Shown here: positions 3,001-33,350 of the stretch, one piece after another
Layout of the letters: each line of letters begins with the position of its first letter
Numbering within the stretch: the first letter of the stretch is position 1
Virus record (IMG/VR): IMGVR_UViG_3300047472_000102
Span: 1-64,000 of that record
Length of the DNA stretch: 64,000 bases
Direction: 5' to 3' (one strand)
From: a virus
Made by a program: the position numbers and the translations under genes
The notes under the pieces: generated by a model
Database searches by the model: none
Told to the model about the DNA's origin: nothing
The model's input: the letters and a program-made list of their open reading frames with translations, nothing else

Positions 3001-5626
3001 CAGTAGTTGCCTTCGGTTCACTAGATAATGCTTCAGGAGCCTCACTGGTAGTCGTTTCCTTCTGTGGGGTAGATTCTTCCGTTGGCTCCGCCTTCGGCGT
3101 TTGCTGAGCCTCTGTGAGTTGTTCTGAAGGTGCACGGAGATTAAGCTTCGGAACATCCACCTGCTTCATATTAAGCTGGGGATATTGCTCTTTAATCGAG
3201 TTGGAAAGCTGAGCCAAAGCAGAAGCTTCTGCATAGACAGTACGAGCAAAATTCTCAGAATTTTCATTGCCAAGATGTACCGCGGCAGTAAACTGACGAG
3301 CTTCAGGAATCCATTCATTATTGGGACCAGCAGACTGGTACTTAACCTTCGCACCTTTACCATGTTCAATAGAGCGGTTCAGGGCACCAACCTTATTGCT
3401 CTGACCTTGAGCAAACATCTCAAGAGCCTGTGCTCTTTGTTGTGCCAATAAGTCATTACCAGCACTAATGGCTTCATTAATGCCTTGAACATGCTGAACC
3501 ATAGAAAGCTGATGAGATGCCTTCCCACCCTCAGTCGCAATTTGACGAGATACTATGTCTGATACAAAAGCCTTTCCTTCTGGCTTCGTATTCGTCATTT
3601 GGTCATAGGTTTGACCAGCACGAGTTACAGCGATGGAGGAACGGATTTGGTTCTTTTGGACTTCCGTTAATTGGGCATTCCCTTGATCAGCCTGATATAA
3701 GACCTTTTCTGCAAGATCAGGATTGACAGCTTGTGGAGCAAATTGAGCCTGTCCTGCTACTTGATTAGCAACAGTAACTGGATTGCTATTAGCAGGAATA
3801 AGATCAGGCTTTTCCAGAGTAAAAAGAGCTTCTTTTACATCTGGAATAGAACCAATAGATTGAGCAATCTTTCCATAGGTCTCAAACTTCTGATAATTTT
3901 CATCATCATGGCTTACATTCTGAAGGAATGCAGGTAGATCATTATTGAAAAGATCAGCATTGTCTTTCAGCTTTTGAGCCACAAAGAGAGCAGCAGATGC
4001 TCGATCTTCAGGACTATTTTGCTCATCTCTAGCTTCGGTAGCCATGAAAGCCATGGCTTCTACGAGGTCAGGTTTAGCACCTAAAGTCTGAACCATAGAC
4101 TCCAGATTACCACGAGGAATATTTAGCAAATCCTGGTTCGAAAGAGTCAGTGCATTTTGCACCTTACCAATGTAATCCTGTGCCTGTAGATCATCCTTGG
4201 GAGCCAAGGAAGACAGACCAGTCACAACATCATTAGTCTGAGTATTAGCATCATTAACCGCAGCAGAGACAGTATCTACACTATTAGGAGCAGCACTCTG
4301 CATATTGGCAATAATAGACTTGCCTTTATCATAGACAGCCTTTGGAGCACCTGCCAATGAAGCAGCAGCATGAGACAACACAGCAGGGCCTTCAATCGCG
4401 CCTGCCGAGAGACCACCAGCCAGCGCTCCCTGTACTACTTGAGACCCAAGATCGTCCGTCAAACGCTGAGTGGTATCAGCATGTTGCTGAATTGCAAGAT
4501 TTTGAGAGAGAGTACCACTGGCGTTTTGAAGCCCCTCTTCCAGAGTCTCTTTCCCCACATTCTGTAACGCTGGCACAAGTCCGGTACCATGTAGAGGATG
4601 CGCTTCGAACCCTTCTACCAACTTACCAGTGGCAGCAGCTAAGGGGCCTTGGATCGCAGCCGCTTCTAGACCTGCTGCGTCTGCTACTCGACTGCGTGCC
4701 TCCTCTGGAGAGTACCCCTGTTGAATATAATTTCGATACTCAGGGGATTTATTCGACAGGTCATCGAATGGCGTTGAGAGAACCTGTTGACTCACTTGTG
4801 CATAAGCACCACCTGCCTCCATCGTTCCGACAGATAGCGGTATGTTTCCTTCAGCAGTTTGAACCACGCGTGGAACGAGTCCCGTACCCTCCAATGAACC
4901 AATCTCTGACAGGGCAGTCTTCGCAACAGACCCCTCAACAGCAGTCTTTAATACATCTTTACCCACTTTCTGCATCACCGAGATTGCGCCGCCAGTAGGA
5001 GCAGCTGCAAGAACAGAGCCAATACCCTGTTCAGTCAGTTCAGCAGCAGAGGTAGGATTCTCAATAAGGCGAGCAGCAGCATCTACTGCTCCTCGTCCTA
5101 CAGAGTTCAATTCAGCACTAAAACGACCATTATCAGCAAGGTCTTTTTGATATTGAGCAGTGTTATCCTGCTTATCCAATTGTTCAGTAGTTCCTGCCAA
5201 GAAGCGGGAATTCTTCTGTTCCTGGCTTTGCTGGCCTTGAAAATAGGCAATGTCATTTGCAACGGTCCGACCCACAGACTGTGCAGCATCTCGACCAAAC
5301 AAACGGGAACCAAGAGTGACAGCACCACCAGCTGAATTGATGACACCAATGCCAATATTGGAAATAGCATCACCAAGGGTCTGACCTTGGCTATCCTGAA
5401 GGTTCTGGGTAGATGCACGATTGAGGTCTACATTATTGAGACTATTAACTACCTCTGGCCCATACTTCTGGGCAAAGGTAAAAGGGTCCATCTGTGCTCG
5501 ATCAACCAGTACCTGATTATTAGCAATATCATTGCCACGGTCGAGAGCAATATTGGTAGCAGTAGGGTTCTGAGCAGCAGCCAGAATAGAGGCAATATCA
5601 TTAGAATTAGGAAGATTATCTGCCAT
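1..5626 (-). CDS. Virion-encapsidated RNA polymerase (N4 gp50-like), N-terminal ~1875 aa; continues past the window's left edge
   Basis: Not in the ORF track. ATG at 5626-5624 follows GAGGATAGT. Spot-checked segments share one frame and carry N4 vRNAP motifs: A NYLEADGKTNGPI (~1200-1240), B DRGVTKNPLTISIYGSG (~845-895), C GVKGVPSLVIGTGDGMIMQ...TLKVFDGINL (~40-160). Confidence 0.95.
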   Translation of the reverse strand, partial: MADNLPNSNDIASILAAAQNPTATNIALDRGNDIANNQVLVDRAQMDPFTFAQKYGPEVVNSLNNVDLNRASTQNLQDSQGQTLGDAISNIGIGVINSAGGAVTLGSRLFGRDAAQSVGRTVANDIAYFQGQQSQEQKNSRFLAGTTEQLDKQDNTAQYQKDLADNGRFSAELNSVGRGAVDAAARLIENPTSAAELTEQGIGSVLAAAPTGGAISVMQKVGKDVLKTAVEGSVAKTALSEIGSLEGTGLVPRVVQTAEGNIPLSVGTMEAGGAYAQVSQQVLSTPFDDLSNKSPEYRNYIQQGYSPEEARSRVADAAGLEAAAIQGPLAAATGKLVEGFEAHPLHGTGLVPALQNVGKETLEEGLQNASGTLSQNLAIQQHADTTQRLTDDLGSQVVQGALAGGLSAGAIEGPAVLSHAAASLAGAPKAVYDKGKSIIANMQSAAPNSVDTVSAAVNDANTQTNDVVTGLSSLAPKDDLQAQDYIGKVQNALTLSNQDLLNIPRGNLESMVQTLGAKPDLVEAMAFMATEARDEQNSPEDRASAALFVAQKLKDNADLFNNDLPAFLQNVSHDDENYQKFETYGKIAQSIGSIPDVKEALFTLEKPDLIPANSNPVTVANQVAGQAQFAPQAVNPDLAEKVLYQADQGNAQLTEVQKNQIRSSIAVTRAGQTYDQMTNTKPEGKAFVSDIVSRQIATEGGKASHQLSMVQHVQGINEAISAGNDLLAQQRAQALEMFAQGQSNKVGALNRSIEHGKGAKVKYQSAGPNNEWIPEARQFTAAVHLGNENSENFARTVYAEASALAQLSNSIKEQYPQLNMKQVDVPKLNLRAPSEQLTEAQQTPKAEPTEESTPQKETTTSEAPEALSSEPKATTETGENTKSIRNEIEQPSERTSGDKQPVSESEAPVQKETVETAYPRLMSNEGTGANQFHAAYRLPDKPKSRLAKLISPINDLRKLLDTPKLMVEFMDGKDVNYNISGANLDALDEILSLGSNVMRAMNERMTLPAAKKILAAFTAGKPANRWKEGRMLNIMERKGNGFIYNKQLVQSAILAGINQSLNGDRLKPNLEASDVADIMGISPDRVTPAMVADFNRGQTQSDFIRNLASNIIDYWGITTNNKASLSQTQGIAEAVAIEVIHGLAKADLLSTGSFEYHDGDTHFTQNRVYFDQRPQALIDEIGKLGAASKLLDDMILTEKSKTLGISYGSPSGNIPVEQLRSPGVKNTPKQREALAHEGSTPYLLNEPMHRLMSNLGFEFFLNYMGGQIYQEGDLNVNHERSLEGKNRTLEYSYQNVMNQVEELRSHAEKAEKPITEYPAYYDFNMSKVGRMQMQGNNNPQSDKLAREIFMPTKVTLDLNDPKQEAQFWMTVAQGVGVKTEKVTRANAIQQAQDKTLGDAKVRPIIDTIAAFLKGGELPDGFGQTIIDAMPVGSTMHGLHGLLSVAQYLNAFKDGSDSKFEHYNYLEADGKTNGPIMTTALFASRITPDIIKVLRKGGIFLGEENRSLNDHILNRDPEDLYQATTTATGKAQDDFTQSISDNPKALDKLAALSRVMAAIDANITLGEDDENGVPTLKLDRGVTKNPLTISIYGSGIDGIAGKLASSLLDGIYKHMSDLTKNGGTLDGKTYDGFVGDLKELISEEVRLTKEKEIKFSPAKGSDKGGKSNSPQDFTFSPSQFNAFKSHVRVFFVNQMHQGIHDQILQHVEPSTSALQLATNLQSIFLTGAYQQAIVDKLLALKSQEGYHEGDFLSQSDLDQIMKDLKPLSPIVNTGTQNFFIAGNQKADIMDTVTVNGTKIAMPDTFARGIDGNGQSPAFVYGPDVAGVKGVPSLVIGTGDGMIMQDAATVRNAPKGTLKVFDGINLPATDIDESSRI

Positions 5627-26005: not shown

Positions 26006-27607
26006 TTAGACAACATAAGACATCATAGGGGTAACAGCTTCTTCGGGAGCTTCATCCTCGAAAACGTTGTTGCCTTCCTCATCCTTTATGTTGCCGCTGG
26101 AATCAGTCGGTTTCCAAGGCTTGAGATAGCCTAGCATAGAGACAGTATCAACACAGTCATCTTTGCCTTTAATGCCATTTATTGTTACCAGCTTTATTTG
26201 ATTTAGGAAATGCCCCAAAACAACAGTGTCTCTCATTTCCATAGGCCAATAAATCTTACCTGCCTTGAACCAAGGAACTACAATATTAAATCTTGCCAGT
26301 TTATTAGCATCTGGCCAAATTCCTGGTTCTCCTGATTTGCGATTACTTGCAAAACTAAACCAGATATTACGATTGATCATCTCCTGTTCAAGCCATTTGA
26401 CGAATGTGTTCTGTTGGCCTGACACTTCAATGCCCACTTGCTGGGGACGATACTTGGAAACAAGCCTGAAGAGGTCATTGACTGACTTATCAGCTGTCTG
26501 ACGTGTACATACCCCATCGACCCAGAACCAGTCTCCATTGGCATTGTAGGCCCATACAGAGATAACCGAAAAGTCAGAGCGTTGCTTATCTGTAGTGGCA
26601 AAGTCCGTAGTGATGTAGAAGTTATACATCGACCTACGTTCCATCAGAGGAACACGATTATACCATCTAATATCAGCATCCTGAACAAGACGCTCTTCAT
26701 CACTCGAAATGCGAAGCATAAGCTCTTGAAAGAATGCAGCCGTATGTCCAGTGGCTACAGCCTTCTGGTACATGTCGTTTACGAACTTGTAAGTGAATCG
26801 ATCAGGCCATGCAGAGACGAATTCTTCTTCTGGGACAGGCCAAGACTCACATACGGGATAGACACTGGCATCCCAACCACCACTCTCAACGGCTTTTACA
26901 ATTGGATCGACTTGAGAAAATGGGGTTCCATTGAAGATCACCTTTCTACGGGTAGGATCAAGAGCAAAATCGACACCTTTATAGATCGTATCTTCAATAG
27001 AGGATATGGCCGTAGGCGACCGTGCATCGTCGTCAGAGAGCAAATCGTCAAGAACTGCTAGTGGAGGGCGTCTACCGAAGATTTTCGTTCCACGAAGTCC
27101 TGTCTGGGCACCAAAGAGCTTCACTCCAAACTGCTCACCATCCTTGTTGGCAAATTCCCAGTATTTTTCGGTGAAATGAGCTTCTGGGAGCCATTCTTGA
27201 AGGAACTCGGAATTGTCATAGCGATGCTGGGTATTCTTACGGGCACTGGCTACACCGTTATCCATACTATCAGAGACATAGATCATGCTTTCCACACTGC
27301 CGAAATTAGGCAAATAATGCATGGTACCCAAAAACAGGCTGAAATACTCCATAAACAGAGTAGTCTTAGCAGCACCACGGAAAATCAGATTAACGATATT
27401 AGTACTATCACTAATCGTTTTATCGAGCATTTTCAGATGGACTGCTGGGGTCTTGTGAGTTTCCCCTTCAGAGCCATTTACGAGCTTAATGAAATTCATG
27501 AAATAAAGGGCAAATTCAGAAGGTACATAAGAACCCTCTGAAAGGTCTGTATAATCGACTTGATTAAGCCATTCATCTAATGATTTTTTGATAATAATCT
27601 GTGTCAT
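26006..27607 (-). CDS. terL: Terminase large subunit (N4 gp68-like)
   Basis: Walker A-like FRGAAKTT, Walker B LAVLDDL, FNGTPF, nuclease YITTDFA and KDDCVD. Confidence 0.93.
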   Translation of the reverse strand: MTQIIIKKSLDEWLNQVDYTDLSEGSYVPSEFALYFMNFIKLVNGSEGETHKTPAVHLKMLDKTISDSTNIVNLIFRGAAKTTLFMEYFSLFLGTMHYLPNFGSVESMIYVSDSMDNGVASARKNTQHRYDNSEFLQEWLPEAHFTEKYWEFANKDGEQFGVKLFGAQTGLRGTKIFGRRPPLAVLDDLLSDDDARSPTAISSIEDTIYKGVDFALDPTRRKVIFNGTPFSQVDPIVKAVESGGWDASVYPVCESWPVPEEEFVSAWPDRFTYKFVNDMYQKAVATGHTAAFFQELMLRISSDEERLVQDADIRWYNRVPLMERRSMYNFYITTDFATTDKQRSDFSVISVWAYNANGDWFWVDGVCTRQTADKSVNDLFRLVSKYRPQQVGIEVSGQQNTFVKWLEQEMINRNIWFSFASNRKSGEPGIWPDANKLARFNIVVPWFKAGKIYWPMEMRDTVVLGHFLNQIKLVTINGIKGKDDCVDTVSMLGYLKPWKPTDSSGNIKDEEGNNVFEDEAPEEAVTPMMSYVV

Positions 27608-28347
27608 TCTTCATCCTCTGCCTTGTGCAGACGTGTGGCAGCTACTTCAATGGTTTTCATGGTTCCCATTTGAATGGCTTGCCTCTGGCCTTGAGCCAAG
27701 GAAGTAAGAGCATCCGTGAGTGCCCTCATGCCTTGCTGGTCAGACTCGCTCATATTAATTTGAAGCTGTCCCTTAATGGTCTCTGGCTTCTTTAAGTGGG
27801 TGAGAATACTGTTAGCTGCTTCTGTTCGAACCTTTTCACTATCAGCATTTTTCATGAGATCGAACTGCACATTAAGTGCTTCCTGATACATGTGCTGATT
27901 AAGTACCCATGAAGGTACGAGGCTCTGCTCAAGAATGAGGTTAACCAGTTTGCCCTTCTTGTAGATGGCAATGTAGCTAGCAATCTCTTTTTCGGGTTTC
28001 CCAGCTGCCACGAGCTTTGTGTAGCGATCTGGAAAGGTCTTTATCCAAGATTCCTTATCCGTATAGCCCATAAGCTTGAACGATACGAAGGACACTGCAT
28101 AGAGATAATCCTCTGTCTTGAACTTACCATCCTTAAGGACGGCAGTATAAGACATGAAGTTATCACGTATAATCTCCCTGATATTATCATCAGTACTAAT
28201 AGCATTAATCTTATCAACAAATGCTTGAGTAATAGATGATTTGAGGGTTGTAGGTACTGCTGCTTTGACTTGATCAATAGTAATAAGATTCTGTGGCAAA
28301 TCAGGTTTAGTACTAAAAGGTGCAGATAGTTCTGTCATTTCATTCAC
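27604..28347 (-). CDS. N4 gp69-like protein (candidate small terminase)
   Basis: NFMSYTAVLKDGKFK..DY..AV and SEKVRTEAANSILTHLKKPE; directly upstream of terL. Confidence 0.75.
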   Translation of the reverse strand: MNEMTELSAPFSTKPDLPQNLITIDQVKAAVPTTLKSSITQAFVDKINAISTDDNIREIIRDNFMSYTAVLKDGKFKTEDYLYAVSFVSFKLMGYTDKESWIKTFPDRYTKLVAAGKPEKEIASYIAIYKKGKLVNLILEQSLVPSWVLNQHMYQEALNVQFDLMKNADSEKVRTEAANSILTHLKKPETIKGQLQINMSESDQQGMRALTDALTSLAQGQRQAIQMGTMKTIEVAATRLHKAEDEE

Positions 28348-28380
28348 TTGATTTTTGTTAAATACTTATTGTACTAATCA

Positions 28381-28482
28381 GTTGGGTAGTCGAGTTTGTC
28401 TCCTACCCCCTGATTGGGTTTTGATGGGTTGACCCTTAATCAGGTGCTTGGGGAGGTAGGTTTTCCTACCTCCCTCTTTTTT
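28381..28482 (+). ncRNA. Candidate three-hairpin small RNA with its own terminator
   Basis: No ORF. Three hairpins, the last GGGAGGTAGG-TTTT-CCTACCTCCC plus a U-tract on the plus strand only; upstream TTGATT-N17-GTACTA. Confidence 0.5.
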
Positions 28483-28492
28483 CTTCGGTTCT

Positions 28493-28741
28493 TTACATGT
28501 GATCTTCAGGAAGAGTGATACGAGCAGGTTGGAAAACCGCTCTATTCATCCACATAAAAGCAGACTGAATTTCCGTCTTGGCAATAGAAAGCATACGCTT
28601 ATCATGATTATCAGAACTCATTAGTTCTTCTAAACGTCTCAATAATCTTTCTTCCATAATTTTATTGACGTTGACTGTCTGAACATTGTCATCAGACTGT
28701 TTCTTGTAACCTGCTACTGGAAGTCCTTTGTGTTCGGTCAT
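28493..28741 (-). CDS. Acb2/Tad1-family cyclic-nucleotide sponge (anti-CBASS)
   Basis: 82 aa, VAGYKKQS...N..K...DKRMLSIAKTEIQSAFMWMNRAVFQP; matches the recalled Acb2 pattern GY...N..K...R.LAI.KT.IQ...M...RA..QP. Confidence 0.75.
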   Translation of the reverse strand: MTEHKGLPVAGYKKQSDDNVQTVNVNKIMEERLLRRLEELMSSDNHDKRMLSIAKTEIQSAFMWMNRAVFQPARITLPEDHM

Positions 28742-28876
28742 TGAAAATACTAGCCTTTTATTGGGTTGGTTTACAGGTGTTATATAGGTCAGCAAATTAT
28801 GATTAAGTCAACTAATGATTATTGAGATAATCATGTTAGTCTTATTAATCAAAATGAATTTTAGTTTTGACCCCCC

Positions 28877-28905
28877 TTGCCTGAACCAAAAAGAAGAGCT
28901 AGACA
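28877..28905 (+). promoter_or_regulatory. Putative host sigma70 promoter for the ncRNA/tRNA cluster
   Basis: (C)TTGCCT-N17-TAGACA, close to the rhizobial CTTGAC-N17-CTATAT consensus; AT-rich upstream. Confidence 0.5.
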
Positions 28906-28999
28906 ACATTAACAATCAGAAATGCAAAATATCCCTTAAAATCTAGATAGGGATAAATGGGGAAGCTATGCCTATTCGGTGTAACTACCTTATAAGAGT

Positions 29000-29278
29000 T
29001 TAGAACCAGAGAGAAAAATTACTCATAAGACTAATCATATTATCAGGTTTAATCTGGTCAGATAGGATTCGTCATCTGCAAGACCGTGAGTAGGTCAATA
29101 TCGCCTCTGGTTCTAATGCCTTTGTAATACCGAATGCCGATAGGTCTACATTTTGGATATGAGATGACTTATCATTCCTTGTCGGTATTACATTAATTTG
29201 AGTAATAGGAATTTGGATTTATTCCGCCTATTATTCAAAGGTTAGGTATGTTCTCTGGGTACACCAGCTTACCTAACC
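29000..29278 (+). ncRNA. Four tandem closed-stem RNA domains 5' of tRNA-Pro
   Basis: Closing helices 29000-11/29105-16 (12 bp), 29123-33/29182-92 (11 bp), 29197-209/29227-39 (13 bp), 29240-48/29270-78 (9 bp). Confidence 0.6.
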
Positions 29279-29282
29279 ACTT

Positions 29283-29359
29283 CTGTGTGTAGCCCAGTCT
29301 GGTAGGGTATCTGATTTGGAGTCAGAGGGTCGCAGGTTCAAATCCTGCCACGCAGACCA
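29283..29359 (+). tRNA. tRNA-Pro(UGG)
   Basis: Cloverleaf; anticodon arm TCTGA-TTTGGAG-TCAGA; GGTTCAAATCC; ends in CCA. Confidence 0.93.
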
Positions 29360-29373
29360 ATTTGAAGAGTACT

Positions 29374-29458
29374 TTGGCGCGAGGTAGAAGCGCTAGGTGC
29401 CATCCAATTCGTCACCTAATGACATAGGACAGGATGGTTAAATGGGGGTATGCGCCAA
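29374..29458 (+). ncRNA. Structured RNA domain between tRNA-Pro and tRNA-Asn
   Basis: TTGGCGC/GCGCCAA closing stem; CCATCC/GGATGG and TAGGTG/CACCTA helices. Confidence 0.5.
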
Positions 29459-29467
29459 GCCTATTAT

Positions 29468-29543
29468 TGGAATATAGCTCAGTTGGTAGAGCAGGTGACT
29501 GTTAATCACCTTGTCCCTGGTTCGAGTCCAGGTATTCCAGCCA
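29468..29543 (+). tRNA. tRNA-Asn(GUU)
   Basis: Cloverleaf; GGTGA-CTGTTAA-TCACC; GGTTCGAGTCC; CCA end. Confidence 0.95.
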
Positions 29544-29550
29544 TTAAAAT

Positions 29551-30041
29551 CAAGAAGATGAACTGGCCCTTAGTAAGGATAATCCTGAAAAGAATAAGCA
29601 AGCTTCTTGTAGTCGTAGAGCAGGCTAGTATCCCTTTCTCTCCTGTGAGGGTACACTCCCTGATAAGGCTAGATAGCTCTACGAAGAATTCCTGATAGCC
29701 AGACACTATCGGGTTTAGTGCTGAAGGTACGCGTAAAACCGTGCTGCGAAAGAGCAGGAAGCTTGCTGTGGGGAGTTTACCCCTGTGTACTGCCTTGAGA
29801 TACGGAGCAAGAGCCTCTGCCTTCAGCCAACTAATTCGCATGGTGAGAAATGGGTGATAACCATTCAAAACCTTGCAATCACCTGCTTGGTGTAATCAGC
29901 CGTCTGTCTCTCTATGTCCCAGATACGTACCTCACAGACATAGTGGTTCAGGAATGCCACACATCCTAGAGTGCTTGAGCCGAGCAGTATTAGTCCAATC
30001 AGACAGGCCAAGGGGAGGGTAGAGTTGCAAATCTCCCTCCC
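29551..30041 (+). ncRNA. ~490-nt multi-domain structured RNA, or array of small RNAs
   Basis: Seven consecutive stem-closed domains with G-U pairs that favour the plus strand; no credible ORF. Confidence 0.55.
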
Positions 30042-30086
30042 TATTAATCTCAATTTACATTAGTCAAATCTTAATCTATGAGTATT

Positions 30087-30158
30087 CATAATCCGGTCTA
30101 TTCCTCCCAAGGCTCCCGGATTGTGCTAGGGGTAGGTTTAATACCTACCCCACTTTTT
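30087..30158 (+). ncRNA. Candidate sRNA with anti-Shine-Dalgarno loop
   Basis: Promoter TTTACA-N17-TATGAG (30054-30082); 10-bp stem with loop TCTATTCCTCCCAAGGCTC; terminator GGGGTAGG..CCTACCCC plus T-run. Confidence 0.6.
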
Positions 30159-30173
30159 CTATTAGAGGTTATA

Positions 30174-30368
30174 ATGTCCCAAGATGTACTTCTAAATGCA
30201 TGGGATAATCTGGAACCAATAGAAAGAGATTCCCTCAAGAAACTCTCTCCATTTAACCTCTCTGTTTATTTCAAGAATACAAATAAAGAGATCAATCTCT
30301 TTTCTCTTGACCAAATCATACCTGCTGTGGTTGATTTCATTCATTCGAATTATGGGAAGATTGGCTGA
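30174..30368 (+). CDS. Hypothetical protein
   Basis: ATG preceded by GAGG; 64 aa; its end overlaps the tRNA-like element. Confidence 0.5.
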   Translation: MSQDVLLNAWDNLEPIERDSLKKLSPFNLSVYFKNTNKEINLFSLDQIIPAVVDFIHSNYGKIG

Positions 30369-30459
30369 CGTGGTAAGGCCAAAGGTTCATACCCTTTGAG
30401 TACTAATGCTTCTGGGATGCGGTATTAGTCTATTGTTCGTTCAACTCGAACTCTTCTCT
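30354..30459 (+). tRNA. Atypical tRNA-like RNA, anticodon CAU, ~37-nt variable region, no encoded CCA
   Basis: Acceptor GGGAAGA/TCTTCTC; D arm GGCT..TGGTA..GGCC; AAAGG-TTCATAC-CCTTT; T arm GTTCG-TTCAACT-CGAAC. Confidence 0.65.
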
Positions 30460-30520
30460 TGTTGAGTCCCCTTGGTTGTTGTCGCGGGCCAAGGGGATTC
30501 CAACCCTCTCAAAAGTTACT

Positions 30521-30883
30521 ATGCAAAAATATAAAAACAGAGCACTACAAATTAGTGCAAATAATAACTGGCCATCAGAAGGTTTGTTTACACCAAAACG
30601 TGGTGACATTCTTGCCAAGGTAAGACGCCATCTGATACTAGCCATCAGTGAAGAATATCCTCATTTATCTACTACCCAACTTGGCAAGATATTTGAAAGA
30701 GATCATTCTTCCATCGTGGTTCAAAGACAACGTGCATTGAAGGAACGTGCAGATGGTGACCTACCGCATACGATACACGAAATTCAAACTGCACTACGAA
30801 GCAACAGCAGACTCGTTCTCCGAGTTGATAAAAAAGTTCGAAAAAGATACGAACCACGAAGAGAAAAGCATTACCTCGATTGA
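30521..30883 (+). CDS. DnaA C-terminal (domain IV)-like HTH DNA-binding protein
   Basis: R...AKVRRHLILAISE...LSTTQLGKIFERDHSSIV matches the Bac_DnaA_C signature SL..IG..F.RDHTTV. Confidence 0.75.
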   Translation: MQKYKNRALQISANNNWPSEGLFTPKRGDILAKVRRHLILAISEEYPHLSTTQLGKIFERDHSSIVVQRQRALKERADGDLPHTIHEIQTALRSNSRLVLRVDKKVRKRYEPRREKHYLD

Positions 30884-30941
30884 GGTTCTTTAATTATTAT
30901 CAATAATGATAATAATGCATGGTAAAAAGGAACTATAGAAA

Positions 30942-31217
30942 ATGAAAAACCTTACTGATATTGCTACAGGTATTGGCGAAGTTAATACCTATACCAAGAC
31001 CACCGCCAAGGGGGTACTGGAGCAAGCTCTGACAGTCATCTCTGCTCATCTGGCAGATGGTGAAGAGGTCAATCTTCCTGGATTTGGCAAGTTCGCTACC
31101 AGTCGTCGTGAAGCCCGTATGGGTCGCAATCCAAAGACTGGTGAGGCTACCGAGATTCCTGCTACCAACGTAGTCAAGTTCAAGCCTGCCAAGGCTCTGA
31201 AGGACTCCGTCAAGTAA
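30942..31217 (+). CDS. HU-family DNA-binding protein
   Basis: GEEVNLPGFGKF...REARMGRNPKTGE...VKFKPAKALKDSV. Confidence 0.95.
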   Translation: MKNLTDIATGIGEVNTYTKTTAKGVLEQALTVISAHLADGEEVNLPGFGKFATSRREARMGRNPKTGEATEIPATNVVKFKPAKALKDSVK

Positions 31218-31287
31218 CACAGAGGTTGCTCTCGCTTACCTCCTTTCTCCACTCTGGTCCCGTAGTGGGTGTAAAACGGGACATTCA

Positions 31288-31363
31288 GCTTCCTTAGTTC
31301 AGTGGATAGAACGTTGGATTTCTACTCCAAATGTCAGAGGTTCGAATCCTCTAGGAAGCTCCA
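31288..31363 (+). tRNA. tRNA-Arg(UCU)
   Basis: Cloverleaf; TTGGA-TTTCTAC-TCCAA; GGTTCGAATCC; CCA end. Confidence 0.93.
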
Positions 31364-31558
31364 AAGGATTCAAAATGGCAGGCAAAGAAATCTATCGTAA
31401 GTATCGTCAAGGATACACATTATTCATAGTAATAATTAACTTCATTAGAGGTCGCAATCGTACTGAAGAAAAATTCCAGTATGAAGACATGGAATTTACC
31501 ATGAAAAAAGACCCTAATATTAATGGTATTATTACTATTAATTATAAGGAAATTTAAG

Positions 31559-31780
31559 ATGTCACTAAGCCATAAAGAAATAGGTCTTTACAGTAAATTC
31601 TACATTGAACGTGTGGATGGCAGAGACCAACCGGGTGGAGATAGAGAGAATGCAATCTACTATGTCCTCGATCTGGTCCATGACGAGTTCGCTAAAGTAG
31701 CCATGGCAGCATATGCAGAAGCCTGCATTGCAAAGTACCCTCTCTTGGCTCAAGACATTCAGAAGTTGATCAATGAATGA
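31559..31780 (+). CDS. Small phage hypothetical protein
   Basis: AAGGA RBS; GLYSKFYIERVDGRDQPGG...YYVLDLVHDEFA...YPLLAQD. Confidence 0.65.
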   Translation: MSLSHKEIGLYSKFYIERVDGRDQPGGDRENAIYYVLDLVHDEFAKVAMAAYAEACIAKYPLLAQDIQKLINE

Positions 31781-31936
31781 GACGCAGAAGAACATCATTA
31801 TCTCTATTTTTAATAGCTATAATATGGATCGTTCTAAGCTAGAAAAAGTACTCATTATCATTGCAGTAAAACTCCAACAAAACAGGGTCACAGATACCCT
31901 CCACGATATGGCTCATGAAGCCTGTCTACATGTCGA

Positions 31937-32161
31937 GTGGGAATTATGAAAATCTACAAACACAAGATTAGAGGCGGATATTACATCCGCCTTTTTCATG
32001 CTCGGCTTCAGATAAATTGTTCATATGACATGGCTCATTGCGTAGTCTATATGTCCCTGAAGAAACCCTTCCTCTGGGTACGTCCAGCATCTGATTTCTA
32101 TGATGGACGATTCAAAAGAATCACATTATGGGGAGTAATAAATGATCGTTATAAAGGTTGA
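31937..32161 (+). CDS. DUF1653-like small protein
   Basis: YKHK.GG.Y...VVY.....WVRP...F.DGRF pattern. Confidence 0.55.
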   Translation: MGIMKIYKHKIRGGYYIRLFHARLQINCSYDMAHCVVYMSLKKPFLWVRPASDFYDGRFKRITLWGVINDRYKG

Positions 32162-32390
32162 ACTCCATTCAGCAGTTACAGGTCGAATTACTCAATTGGG
32201 TAAGATGATAATTGCAAACGATGGCAAGTCGTATGACCCCAACATTGGTTCCTATGATGGTGTTGTCCTACGCAAACCTGACTTCAAAATAGTCACCAGA
32301 ATGGGACGAATTGAATCTCATAAAAAACATGCTGAAACCATTTGGCACTTGATAGGAAAAATGCTTTCAAATATGGGTTATATAAAATAA
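32142..32390 (+). CDS. Hypothetical protein
   Basis: GGGAG RBS; 82 aa. Confidence 0.6.
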   Translation: MIVIKVELHSAVTGRITQLGKMIIANDGKSYDPNIGSYDGVVLRKPDFKIVTRMGRIESHKKHAETIWHLIGKMLSNMGYIK

Positions 32391-32393
32391 CTC

Positions 32394-32477
32394 GTGGGCT
32401 TGGTGAAACGGTAGACACAAGAGACTTAAAATCTCTCGCTTAAATGCATACCGGTTCAAGTCCGGTAGCCCACACCA
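32394..32477 (+). tRNA. tRNA-Leu(UAA)
   Basis: Type II cloverleaf; AGAGA-CTTAAAA-TCTCT; GGTTCAAGTCC; CCA end. Confidence 0.93.
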
Positions 32478-32478
32478 C

Positions 32479-32546
32479 TTCCCTGAAAAGACTGCCCTTT
32501 CTAGAGGGGTTGAGATACGGAGACACTCCAGTCGCAGTAAGGGAAT
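32479..32546 (+). ncRNA. Small multi-stem RNA domain after tRNA-Leu
   Basis: TTCCCT/AGGGAA, GACTG/CAGTC and inner hairpins; shares two motifs with the 29.5-30 kb domains. Confidence 0.5.
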
Positions 32547-32547
32547 A

Positions 32548-32623
32548 GGGATAGCTAGTAACTCAGTCTGGTAGAGTAGCTTCGCGAGCGTGTCGTTGGT
32601 TCAAATCCAACCTAGTGACTCCC
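32548..32623 (+). ncRNA. tRNA-like RNA with truncated anticodon arm
   Basis: Intact D arm ACTC-AGTCTGGTA-GAGT and T arm GTTGG-TTCAAAT-CCAAC; anticodon arm only GCT-TCGCG-AGC; bulged acceptor, no CCA. Confidence 0.6.
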
Positions 32624-32746
32624 TATTAATTCAAGTTGCCTCTCCATTAAACCATGGTCAAAGTGGGGTGGCATTTCCGAAGAGGGTTGCCCTTTGAACG
32701 TCGGGTAACTTAAATGATGAAGCTCAAATTCACGCCTCTTTCGTGG

Positions 32747-32821
32747 TCCCTCTTCGTTCAGTGGTAGGACGCCAGATTTTGAGTCTGGATGTGGGTGGTT
32801 CGAGTCCATCAGAGGGAACCA
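32747..32821 (+). tRNA. tRNA-Gln(UUG)
   Basis: TCCCTCT/AGAGGGA acceptor; CCAGA-TTTTGAG-TCTGG; CCA end. Confidence 0.92.
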
Positions 32822-32838
32822 TTATAAAGGATAATATA

Positions 32839-33027
32839 ATGATCACTGATCATGACTTATCACTACTAATCGCAGATGAAGGTAGATGGGAAGAATTCCA
32901 TCAAAAGAATGGTAATTTTTTTATGTATGATTACCATAAACGTATTCGTCTAAACCTAGAAAAAATGTACCGAGATCGTCAGAATCCTAAACCCAAATTT
33001 GATGATGGGTTTACTCCTGATAATTAG
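32839..33027 (+). CDS. Hypothetical protein
   Basis: AAGGA RBS before MITDHDL; 62 aa. Confidence 0.5.
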   Translation: MITDHDLSLLIADEGRWEEFHQKNGNFFMYDYHKRIRLNLEKMYRDRQNPKPKFDDGFTPDN

Positions 33028-33281
33028 TATCACTAATCCCATAGTGGAAAATACTCATATAATTTTTTGGAGTGAACTTTATGTTTAAAATCGTATGGTT
33101 CAAACTCAAACAATCATTTGGTTTCATTCCATATTATCATCCCTGTGATAATTGCTTTTGTTTAATGAAGTCCAATGGATTTGGACTTTGTGAAGAATGC
33201 TTAAATAAATATTAATAGTAATAATTATTATGAATAATCGCAGTACGTTAAAATTCATATAAATGTGCACCCCCAGTGTAC

Positions 33282-33350
33282 ACCCGGTACACCCTCCTTA
33301 CACCAACTATCCCCCCCCCTATGTGTACCGGGTATCCGTCGCTCCGCTCC
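33282..33350 (+). promoter_or_regulatory. Probable genome-end region and vRNAP early promoter core
   Basis: 11-bp inverted repeat around a C9 run; GCTCCGC at 33341-33347 (core of N4 hairpin promoters) just upstream of the first early gene. Confidence 0.45.

Follow-up and report, generated by a model that had tools for sequence, protein, structure and literature searches.

A Y RNA-type hairpin in a mosaic, tRNA-linked non-coding block of an N4-like phage

Introduction

What kind of RNA, if any, is made from a kilobase of phage DNA that is non-coding around two transfer RNA (tRNA) genes? The question is raised by positions 29000-30041 of a stretch of 64,000 nt, called the window here, which comprises positions 1 to 64,000 of the IMG/VR virus record IMGVR_UViG_3300047472_000102. 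An earlier note, written from the sequence alone, had described this region as back-to-back, stem-closed RNA domains with embedded tRNAs, and had proposed that it is either one large ornate RNA or a cassette of tRNA-sized RNAs that could act as decoys against host defences.

The complete record, a virus genome of 75,370 bp, has terminal repeats. The large terminase it encodes shares 75% identity with the terminase of OLIVR1, an Agrobacterium phage, and 64-68% with the terminases of N4-like phages of Rhizobium, Sinorhizobium and Ochrobactrum, and because of these identities we assign the phage to the N4-like Schitoviridae, with a rhizosphere alphaproteobacterium as its predicted host. Both public sequencing runs that contain the phage (2 of 2) are rhizosphere metagenomes.

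In what follows, we examine the region by means of folding statistics, covariance models and comparison with phage, plasmid and prokaryote genomes. The stretch is a mosaic non-coding patchwork that heads the plus-strand (early-side) genes, and not one giant RNA. One of its hairpins, called H2, carries the handle of the bacterial Y RNAs, the partners of the Ro60 protein (Rsr in bacteria). The best explanation, in which we have moderate confidence, is that of a mosaic block whose Y RNA-type handle is most likely a rival of the host Y RNA YrlA for Rsr. The new giant RNA is replaced by a more modest picture that can be checked.

Results and Discussion

The minimum free energy (MFE) fold of H2 consists of an 11-bp closing stem (29123-29133/29182-29192), internal loops and a helix of 7-8 bp. 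This inner helix (29139-29145/29167-29173) has 7 bp with one G-U pair and is capped by an apical loop of 16 nt. The handle letters are a CGAAUGCC loop at 29131-29138, a CUACA bulge at 29146-29150 and, in the 3' internal loop (..CCUUGUCG), AUUCCUUG at 29174-29181. BLAST of the 5' block (28990-29282) gave one significant non-tRNA match, 45 nt at 87% identity, in Rhizobium phage RHph_N3_13, which has 68 kb and is not assigned to a family in its record. Between the two phages, the inner helix shows a compensatory swap from U-A to A-U, and the G-U pair is conserved.

An exact scan of prokaryote genomes with a 19-mer common to H2 and RHph_N3_13, GAATGCCGATAGGNCTACA, led to a Bdellovibrionota metagenome-assembled genome (MAG, JAXLVP010000002.1). 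The match lies in the gap between rsr (TROVE and vWA_Ro60 domains) and rtcB/rtcA, amid four tandem short Y RNA modules (locus L059, 2693-3209). The Rfam YrlA model catches only one of these modules, at 33.8 bits (E 1.4e-5), which is below the cut-off because the tRNA-like part is missing; short Y RNAs thus appear to be under-represented in Rfam. In the alignment of YrlA with this one module, the bases that H2 conserves coincide with the unpaired ones of the YrlA handle, namely CGAAUGC, CUA, AUG and ..CUUGUCG.

Two covariance models identify the hairpin. The first one, R1, was built only from three Y RNA modules in the rsr-rtcB gap of the MAG, and finds 29124-29191 with 42.2 bits (E 8.8e-10) and RHph_N3_13 with 38.7 bits; it has no other match in the 64 kb, and matches the plus strand only. 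The second one, R2, was built from 31 viral modules with the window sequence excluded, and gives 62.8 bits (E 7e-17) for H2. Its further matches, with 34-43 bits, include the YrlA RNAs adjacent to rsr on the R. phaseoli and R. rhizogenes plasmids.

Y RNAs are recognized by Rsr through a motif GNCGAAN0-1G near the 5' end (PMC4201824). At this position H2 reads ACCGAAUG, with the core CGAAUG at 29131-29136 and an A for the first G, which we count as the motif, and RHph_N3_13 reads GCCGAAUG. H2 also has the long stem in which its two ends pair, as well as an internal loop and a bulged helix, and it is homologous to rsr-adjacent RNAs according to R1 and R2. There is no recognizable Ro60 ortholog within ~4 kb, and YrlA's tRNA-like domain (T arm, acceptor-like stem, D arm) is absent, the apical part being the 16-nt loop. 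Weak matches of the YrlA model at 29304-29520 are the T arm and D arm of the adjacent tRNAs. At the level of sequence, these data place H2 (plus strand) in the Y RNA family, with the handle of bacterial YrlA and a short loop in place of the tRNA-like domain.

We now consider how widely the hairpin occurs. A pattern scan of IMG/VR followed by R1 yielded 31 modules in 27 viral records; the 8-mer CGAAUGCC, which belonged to the collecting pattern, is kept in 23 of the 23 distinct viral copies. In the alignment of the 31 modules (A6), 96.9% of the cells are paired and double changes occur in 14 of the 16 pairs, counts that are inflated because the alignment was fitted to the model. Both helices covary, and the covariation score is 0.763, where shuffles reach 0.157 and slid partners score 0.06-0.15.

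A tRNA is found within 400 nt of the hairpin in seven loci, at a distance of 6 nt in viral record L109 and of 1 nt in L110. In RHph_N3_13 (locus L055), the handle (module 3500-3558) is just upstream, with a gap of 5 nt, of an anticodon-less tRNA-like gene (3564-3639; Rfam tRNA 35.9 bits). The window has a tRNA-like element as well, at 32544-32627 on the plus strand, which is tRNA-Pro-like with a shrunken anticodon arm and similar to the anticodon-less gene of RHph_N3_13. In these two phages, the modules of YrlA thus appear as separate genes.

As to the protein partner, a TROVE-like gene is present in 5 of the 27 hairpin-bearing records. Among those at least 90% complete, TROVE occurs in 1 of 11, a 195-kb phage, and vWA_Ro60 likewise in 1 of 11. 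Pfam gives no TROVE, vWA_Ro60 or RtcB match in the 75-kb record of the present phage, and no TROVE match in RHph_N3_13 or in four further phages of rhizobia. That phages without Ro60 have a Y RNA reduced to the handle, conserved and covarying, points to the host Ro60 protein as the target. The Y RNA survey of Chen et al. was limited to TROVE-bearing genomes, and such phages were therefore outside it (PMC4201824).

On the host side, an Rsr homolog is present in 63 plasmid records, 44 of them from Rhizobium. Rhizobium plasmid loci read rtcR-rsr-YrlA array-rtcB, with the same handle as H2, and hosts of Rhizobium and Agrobacterium type thus have these genes on plasmids; for R. phaseoli, the order is rtcR-rsr-YrlA (96.5 bits)-rtcB. 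YrlA in Rhizobium etli was already reported by Chen et al. (PMC4201824). Between rsr and rtcB, there are five Y RNA modules on the R. rhizogenes plasmid pC5.7c (L066, 5607-6410), the last of which is short and shows no obvious tRNA-like domain, and at least three on the R. phaseoli plasmid (L065, 5607-6005).

On this basis we suggest the following role for H2. It would share a transcript with the tRNAs, the first terminator that follows downstream on this strand being the one at 30129-30158, and would be excised by tRNA processing and by processing of the RNase E type. The released hairpin would bind host Rsr, filling its Y RNA site without coupling Rsr to PNPase. Because it lacks the tRNA-like domain that tethers the effector, it would most likely compete with host YrlA, and in this way block or redirect the Rsr-Y RNA-exonuclease and RtcB response of RNA quality control and repair, presumably the one switched on by tRNA damage during infection. 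In Salmonella, cleaved tRNAs act as inducers of the rtc operon with Rsr/RtcB (PMC7790460). Hijacking, in which H2 would recruit Rsr to phage RNA, is a close second and the main alternative to the competitor. Of the decoy cassette suggested in the earlier note, one domain (29124-29191) survives as a hairpin of the Rsr/Ro60-binding type, and no other domain does.

A broader idea is that many unrelated phages without Ro60 carry the minimal Y RNA handle, often in tRNA clusters, as a decoy of host Rsr or as a hijacking adaptor. We consider this possible but rather doubtful. If true, the conflict between phage and host would involve the bacterial Ro60/Y RNA/RtcB module, one example being the response to damage by anticodon nucleases, and RNA mimicry would be the countermeasure of the phages. 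The function of bacterial Ro60 and Y RNA is still largely open beyond Deinococcus. A tractable pair for experiments is RHph_N3_13, which has the hairpin, and its sister RHph_N3_19, which does not; in the R. phaseoli hosts of both, a plasmid carries the rtcR-rsr-yrlA-rtcB locus.

It is important to point out what weighs against this assignment, in addition to the model-fitted alignment. In a search of 121 nt with the limit relaxed to E<=10, the Rfam YrlA model (gathering score 69 bits) still misses H2, and it gives 96.5 bits for the R. phaseoli YrlA used as control; since the tRNA-like domain is lacking, H2 belongs to the Y RNA handle family but is not YrlA proper. The nearest members of the Schitoviridae do not have the hairpin, which is therefore dispensable for this family. 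A strongly diverged Ro60-like protein can escape Pfam, in which case a phage-encoded partner could be missed. The rhizobial host is a prediction from relatives, and transcription, processing and Rsr binding of H2 are steps that we infer. Finally, the Y RNA identity leaves three neighboring hairpins, H1, H3 and H4, and the stretch 29544-30012 unexplained.

The strongest of the competing explanations takes the hairpins, H2 included, as a processing or stabilizing leader or spacer of a tRNA precursor, with H2 a passive relic of host plasmid DNA. Phage tRNA clusters commonly hold structured spacers, the tRNA region of phage T4 being an example, and OLIVR1 and other relatives lack the block, just as the cassette is missing in RHph_N3_19. 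However, the 23 distinct viral copies keep every unpaired letter of the handle and both helices covary, which argues for selection within phages and not for decay. Moreover, H2 copies no Rhizobium plasmid sequence at the BLAST level. We regard this explanation as unlikely.

The next possibility concerns the folding of the 5' block, which might act as DNA, in the form of cruciform-type signals (virion RNA polymerase promoters, an origin or a packaging site) near the genome end. Fold z-scores were calculated against shuffled sequence, and unbiased 120-nt sliding windows were compared with the genome background of −1.07 ± 1.06. The 5' block has a z of −5.92 on the plus strand and −5.28 on the minus strand, and its 120-nt windows give −4.95, −6.87 and −5.67. 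The strong values on both strands speak for a DNA-level function, as does the position of the block between minus-strand late genes and plus-strand early-side genes, where the ends and hairpin promoters of N4-like phages lie (PMC4496689, PMC9163698).

Against it stands the strand preference: the MFE is −94.6 kcal/mol on the plus strand vs −82.3 kcal/mol on the minus strand, i.e. the plus strand is 12 kcal/mol more stable, and the G-U pairs number 12 vs 5. H2 matches an RNA family on the plus strand only, and OLIVR1 does without the block. In addition, the N4-type early promoter hairpins have 3-nt loops (PMC9163698), and better candidates exist elsewhere. Three AT-rich hairpins on the plus strand (TAATTAKTATSAMTAAT; 6-bp stem, 3-nt loop) at 30891-30907, 33021-33037 and 33222-33238, all downstream of the block, look like early promoters of the virion RNA polymerase of N4/LUZ7 type. 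Taken together, we judge a DNA-level function of the 5' block to be quite improbable. H1, H3 and H4 are real structures, strongly folded and with the plus strand favored, and could be additional hairpins for protein binding or processing; no homologs of them were found when the 5' block was compared by BLAST with GenBank phages and plasmids.

We now turn to the proposal of a single large RNA of the GOLLD/ROOL kind with embedded tRNAs. The layout is summarized in Table 1. Bases 28800-30160 are non-coding, and ARAGORN and Rfam confirm that tRNA-Pro and tRNA-Asn are embedded in them on the plus strand. In order, the block consists of four abutting stable hairpins, tRNA-Pro, a spacer, tRNA-Asn, ~470 nt of unremarkable sequence, a GC-rich hairpin and a terminator. 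No open reading frame (ORF) of at least 25 amino acids is found between 28947 and 29337 on either strand. On the 3' side of tRNA-Asn, ORFs are either short (at most 49 amino acids on the plus strand) or overlap a tRNA, in agreement with the earlier statement that there is no credible ORF for over 1 kb.

Table 1. Features of the non-coding block and its divergent neighbor (window coordinates).
Feature	Position	Strand	Evidence
Acb2/Tad1-type cyclic-nucleotide sponge gene (predicted), 100 amino acids	28493-28795	−	Pfam PF24729, 59.3 bits, E 4e-16; divergent neighbor of the RNA block
Leader shared with OLIVR1	28859-28976	+	colinear matches to OLIVR1 75518-75544 and 19-60
H1 hairpin, 117 nt, perfect 12-bp closing stem	29000-29116	+	z −3.96 (+), −4.47 (−); window 29001-29120, −4.95
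H2 hairpin, minimal Y RNA by sequence	29124-29191	+	covariance models R1 and R2
H3 hairpin, 13-bp stem, one G-U	29197-29239	+	z −5.56 (+) vs −3.52 (−)
H4 hairpin, 9-bp closing stem, ends 4 nt 5' of tRNA-Pro	29240-29278	+	z −3.71 (+)
tRNA-Pro (UGG)	29283-29359	+	ARAGORN; Rfam 64.7 bits
Spacer hairpin between the tRNAs, weakly supported	29374-29458	+	z −1.97 (+)
tRNA-Asn (GUU)	29468-29543	+	ARAGORN; Rfam 70.3 bits
Non-coding stretch, folding no better than genome background	29544-30012	+	z, sliding windows
Conserved GC-rich hairpin, loop RUUGCAAR then UAUU	30013-30041	+	z −3.5; recurs in RHph_X2_28B and ort11
Intrinsic terminator closing the block, beyond the range of the earlier note	30129-30158	+	9-bp GC-rich stem and T run

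The non-coding, tRNA-linked character of the region is what a large RNA would have. However, its 3' half folds no better than background. As a whole, 29544-30045 has a z of −2.84 on the plus strand and −1.63 on the minus strand, compared with a mean of −3.25 (standard deviation 2.0) for eight ordinary pieces of 502 nt taken from this genome. The sliding windows of the 3' half lie between +0.6 and −2.0, and its G-U pairs show no strand asymmetry. The earlier statement that almost all of the region folds into consecutive domains is thus true only of the first 280 nt (29000-29280, z −5.9), where folding is far better than in shuffles, and the same holds for the plus-strand G-U pairs. The closing stems that had been listed do exist as perfect inverted repeats, of 12 bp at 29000/29116, 11 bp at 29123/29192 and 9 bp at 29240/29278, and further on of 9 bp at 29613/29684 and 8 bp at 29720/29827; the 3' domains, nevertheless, are post-hoc boundaries around short inverted repeats. 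Folding is again strong, with z of about −5, in the windows at 30041-30240.

In Rfam, only tRNA models match 28300-33300, both at gathering scores and at E<=10, in line with the earlier remark that no GOLLD or ROOL motifs could be recognized. Decayed tRNAs were considered as the identity of the non-tRNA domains and rejected, as neither ARAGORN nor the tRNA model has a match in 29000-30041 beyond the two annotated tRNAs.

An imperfect 11-nt inverted repeat on the plus strand, 28873-28883/30003-30015 (CCCCTTGCCTG/CAGGCCAAGGGG), brackets the whole block, and this weak repeat could in principle close a large RNA. RHph_X2_28B and ort11 do not conserve it, and the left copy of OLIVR1 folds as a local hairpin; a long-range helix was therefore discarded.

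The comparison with related phages tells against a single RNA as well. In OLIVR1, the leader, with its conserved part at window positions 28935-28976, runs straight into tRNA-Asn and then tRNA-Gln, and both the 28978-29466 block and the ~3 kb after tRNA-Asn are arranged differently from the window. RHph_X2_28B and ort11 keep the pair of tRNA-Pro and tRNA-Asn with spacers unrelated in sequence, neither of them conserving the spacer hairpin at 29374-29458; they share only the hairpin at 30013-30041, with one copy per genome and a covarying inner stem. H2, for its part, recurs in unrelated phages, and the hairpin at 30013-30041 recurs alone in two other genera. Covariation in homologs is thus strong for the H2 family and present in the inner stem of the latter hairpin, and the spacers of the relatives are simply unrelated.

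Such a mosaic pattern argues against one large conserved RNA, and with only tRNA matches in Rfam and no block in OLIVR1, the proposal is unsupported. With its parts having separate histories, we consider it very improbable. That H2 encodes a 20-amino-acid peptide (MPIGLH...) can be dismissed as practically negligible: an ATG-started frame is open in this phage and in RHph_N3_13, but the frames diverge past a 1-nt indel although TTGTCGG is kept at the nucleotide level, a Shine-Dalgarno sequence is absent, and the covariance models together with the bacterial Y RNA loci account for every conserved letter.

Further searches gave little. For close relatives, a protein scan of viral contigs returned only OLIVR1, and a metagenome scan one distant contig without tRNAs. 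BLAST of both halves against GenBank phages matched only the tRNAs, the OLIVR1 leader and RHph_N3_13, and plasmid BLAST gave no match; 29544-30012 has no homologs among phages, plasmids and viral loci, and three exact-pattern scans found only chance matches or ort11 itself.

We close this part with the signals and neighbors of the block. A sigma70-like promoter had been placed at 28877-28905, but it is absent from our consensus scan, in which 10 promoter-like sites were found vs 13.3 expected. The leader probably holds the promoter of the RNA/tRNA block. The hairpin at 30013-30041 probably serves as a terminator or attenuator of transcription, or else as a site where a protein binds. It is followed by TATTAATC and, since there is no T run, is not listed as an intrinsic terminator in the terminator scan, which does list 30129-30158. 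The latter, a strong terminator, ends a small unit at 30054-30158 (plus strand), and a 64-amino-acid ORF with a Shine-Dalgarno sequence starts at 30174.

The late block on the minus strand comprises the terminase (26006-27607), a 247-amino-acid gene and the 100-amino-acid gene at 28493-28795, which likely encodes a cyclic-nucleotide sponge against CBASS/Thoeris, judging from its Pfam match. This neighbor is compatible with a counter-defence setting and proves nothing. OLIVR1 gp108c, which corresponds to it by position, is annotated as a structural protein. A strong intrinsic terminator (11-bp stem and T run) is located at 28450-28475 on the plus strand, between two of the minus-strand late genes.

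Two short repeats were also observed on the plus strand. The 13-mer TTGAGATACGGAG occurs at 29795-29807 and 32510-32522, both times preceded by ACTGCC, and may mark a small duplication; its significance is borderline and it is weak evidence of relatedness. The 7-mer GCCTATT, at 28970-28976 and 29459-29465, flanks the segment absent from OLIVR1 (H1-H4, tRNA-Pro and spacer), and may be a recombination scar or chance. A second strain, ~1.3% diverged, spans the region in another rhizosphere run (X2). Compared with the window, it has indels at 28871, 30153, 32382 and 33310, lacks 117 nt (32630-32746) in the gap that separates the tRNA mimic from tRNA-Gln, and has only 14 nt where the window has 136 nt (33071-33206) between two of the candidate promoter hairpins.

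Comparison with Known Systems

GOLLD and ROOL resemble the present block in being non-coding and often near phage tRNAs, but the block has no match to their Rfam models and no sign of one large conserved fold. A parallel to the proposed setting of H2 is the tRNA cluster of phage T4, which contains the stable small RNAs called species 1 and 2. These are structured non-tRNA RNAs that are co-transcribed and processed with the phage tRNAs.

Phage-encoded Y RNAs with a CGAA motif, as in H2, are known from mycobacteriophages, where they are paired with a phage Ro60 (PMC4201824), and from Thermus phage phiLo (Yrl1/Yrl2), whose authors propose that phiRo60 and Yrl hijack the host PNPase (PMC12135203). 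These phages bring their own Ro60, whereas none is detectable in the present phage and in 10 of the 11 near-complete records with the hairpin.

In their architecture, YrlB of Salmonella and M. smegmatis and Yrn2 of D. radiodurans are like H2, each being a long hairpin formed by the ends, with a small apical loop, no full tRNA-like domain, and a CGAA-type Rsr recognition motif at the junction of stem and internal loop. Short hairpin Y RNAs with this type of motif are known in bacteria within 2-4 kb of rsr, and their binding to Rsr has been shown (PMC4201824). H2 differs from them in sitting among the tRNA genes of a phage without Ro60, and its binding to Rsr is a prediction. Finally, the apical part of YrlA (Rfam RF02553) is a tRNA-like domain in permuted form, made up of T arm, acceptor-like stem and D arm, where H2 has the 16-nt loop and a score below that required by Rfam. 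What the two RNAs share is the handle, with CGAAUGC(C/A), a covarying helix of 7 bp, CUAC and ..CUYGUCG.

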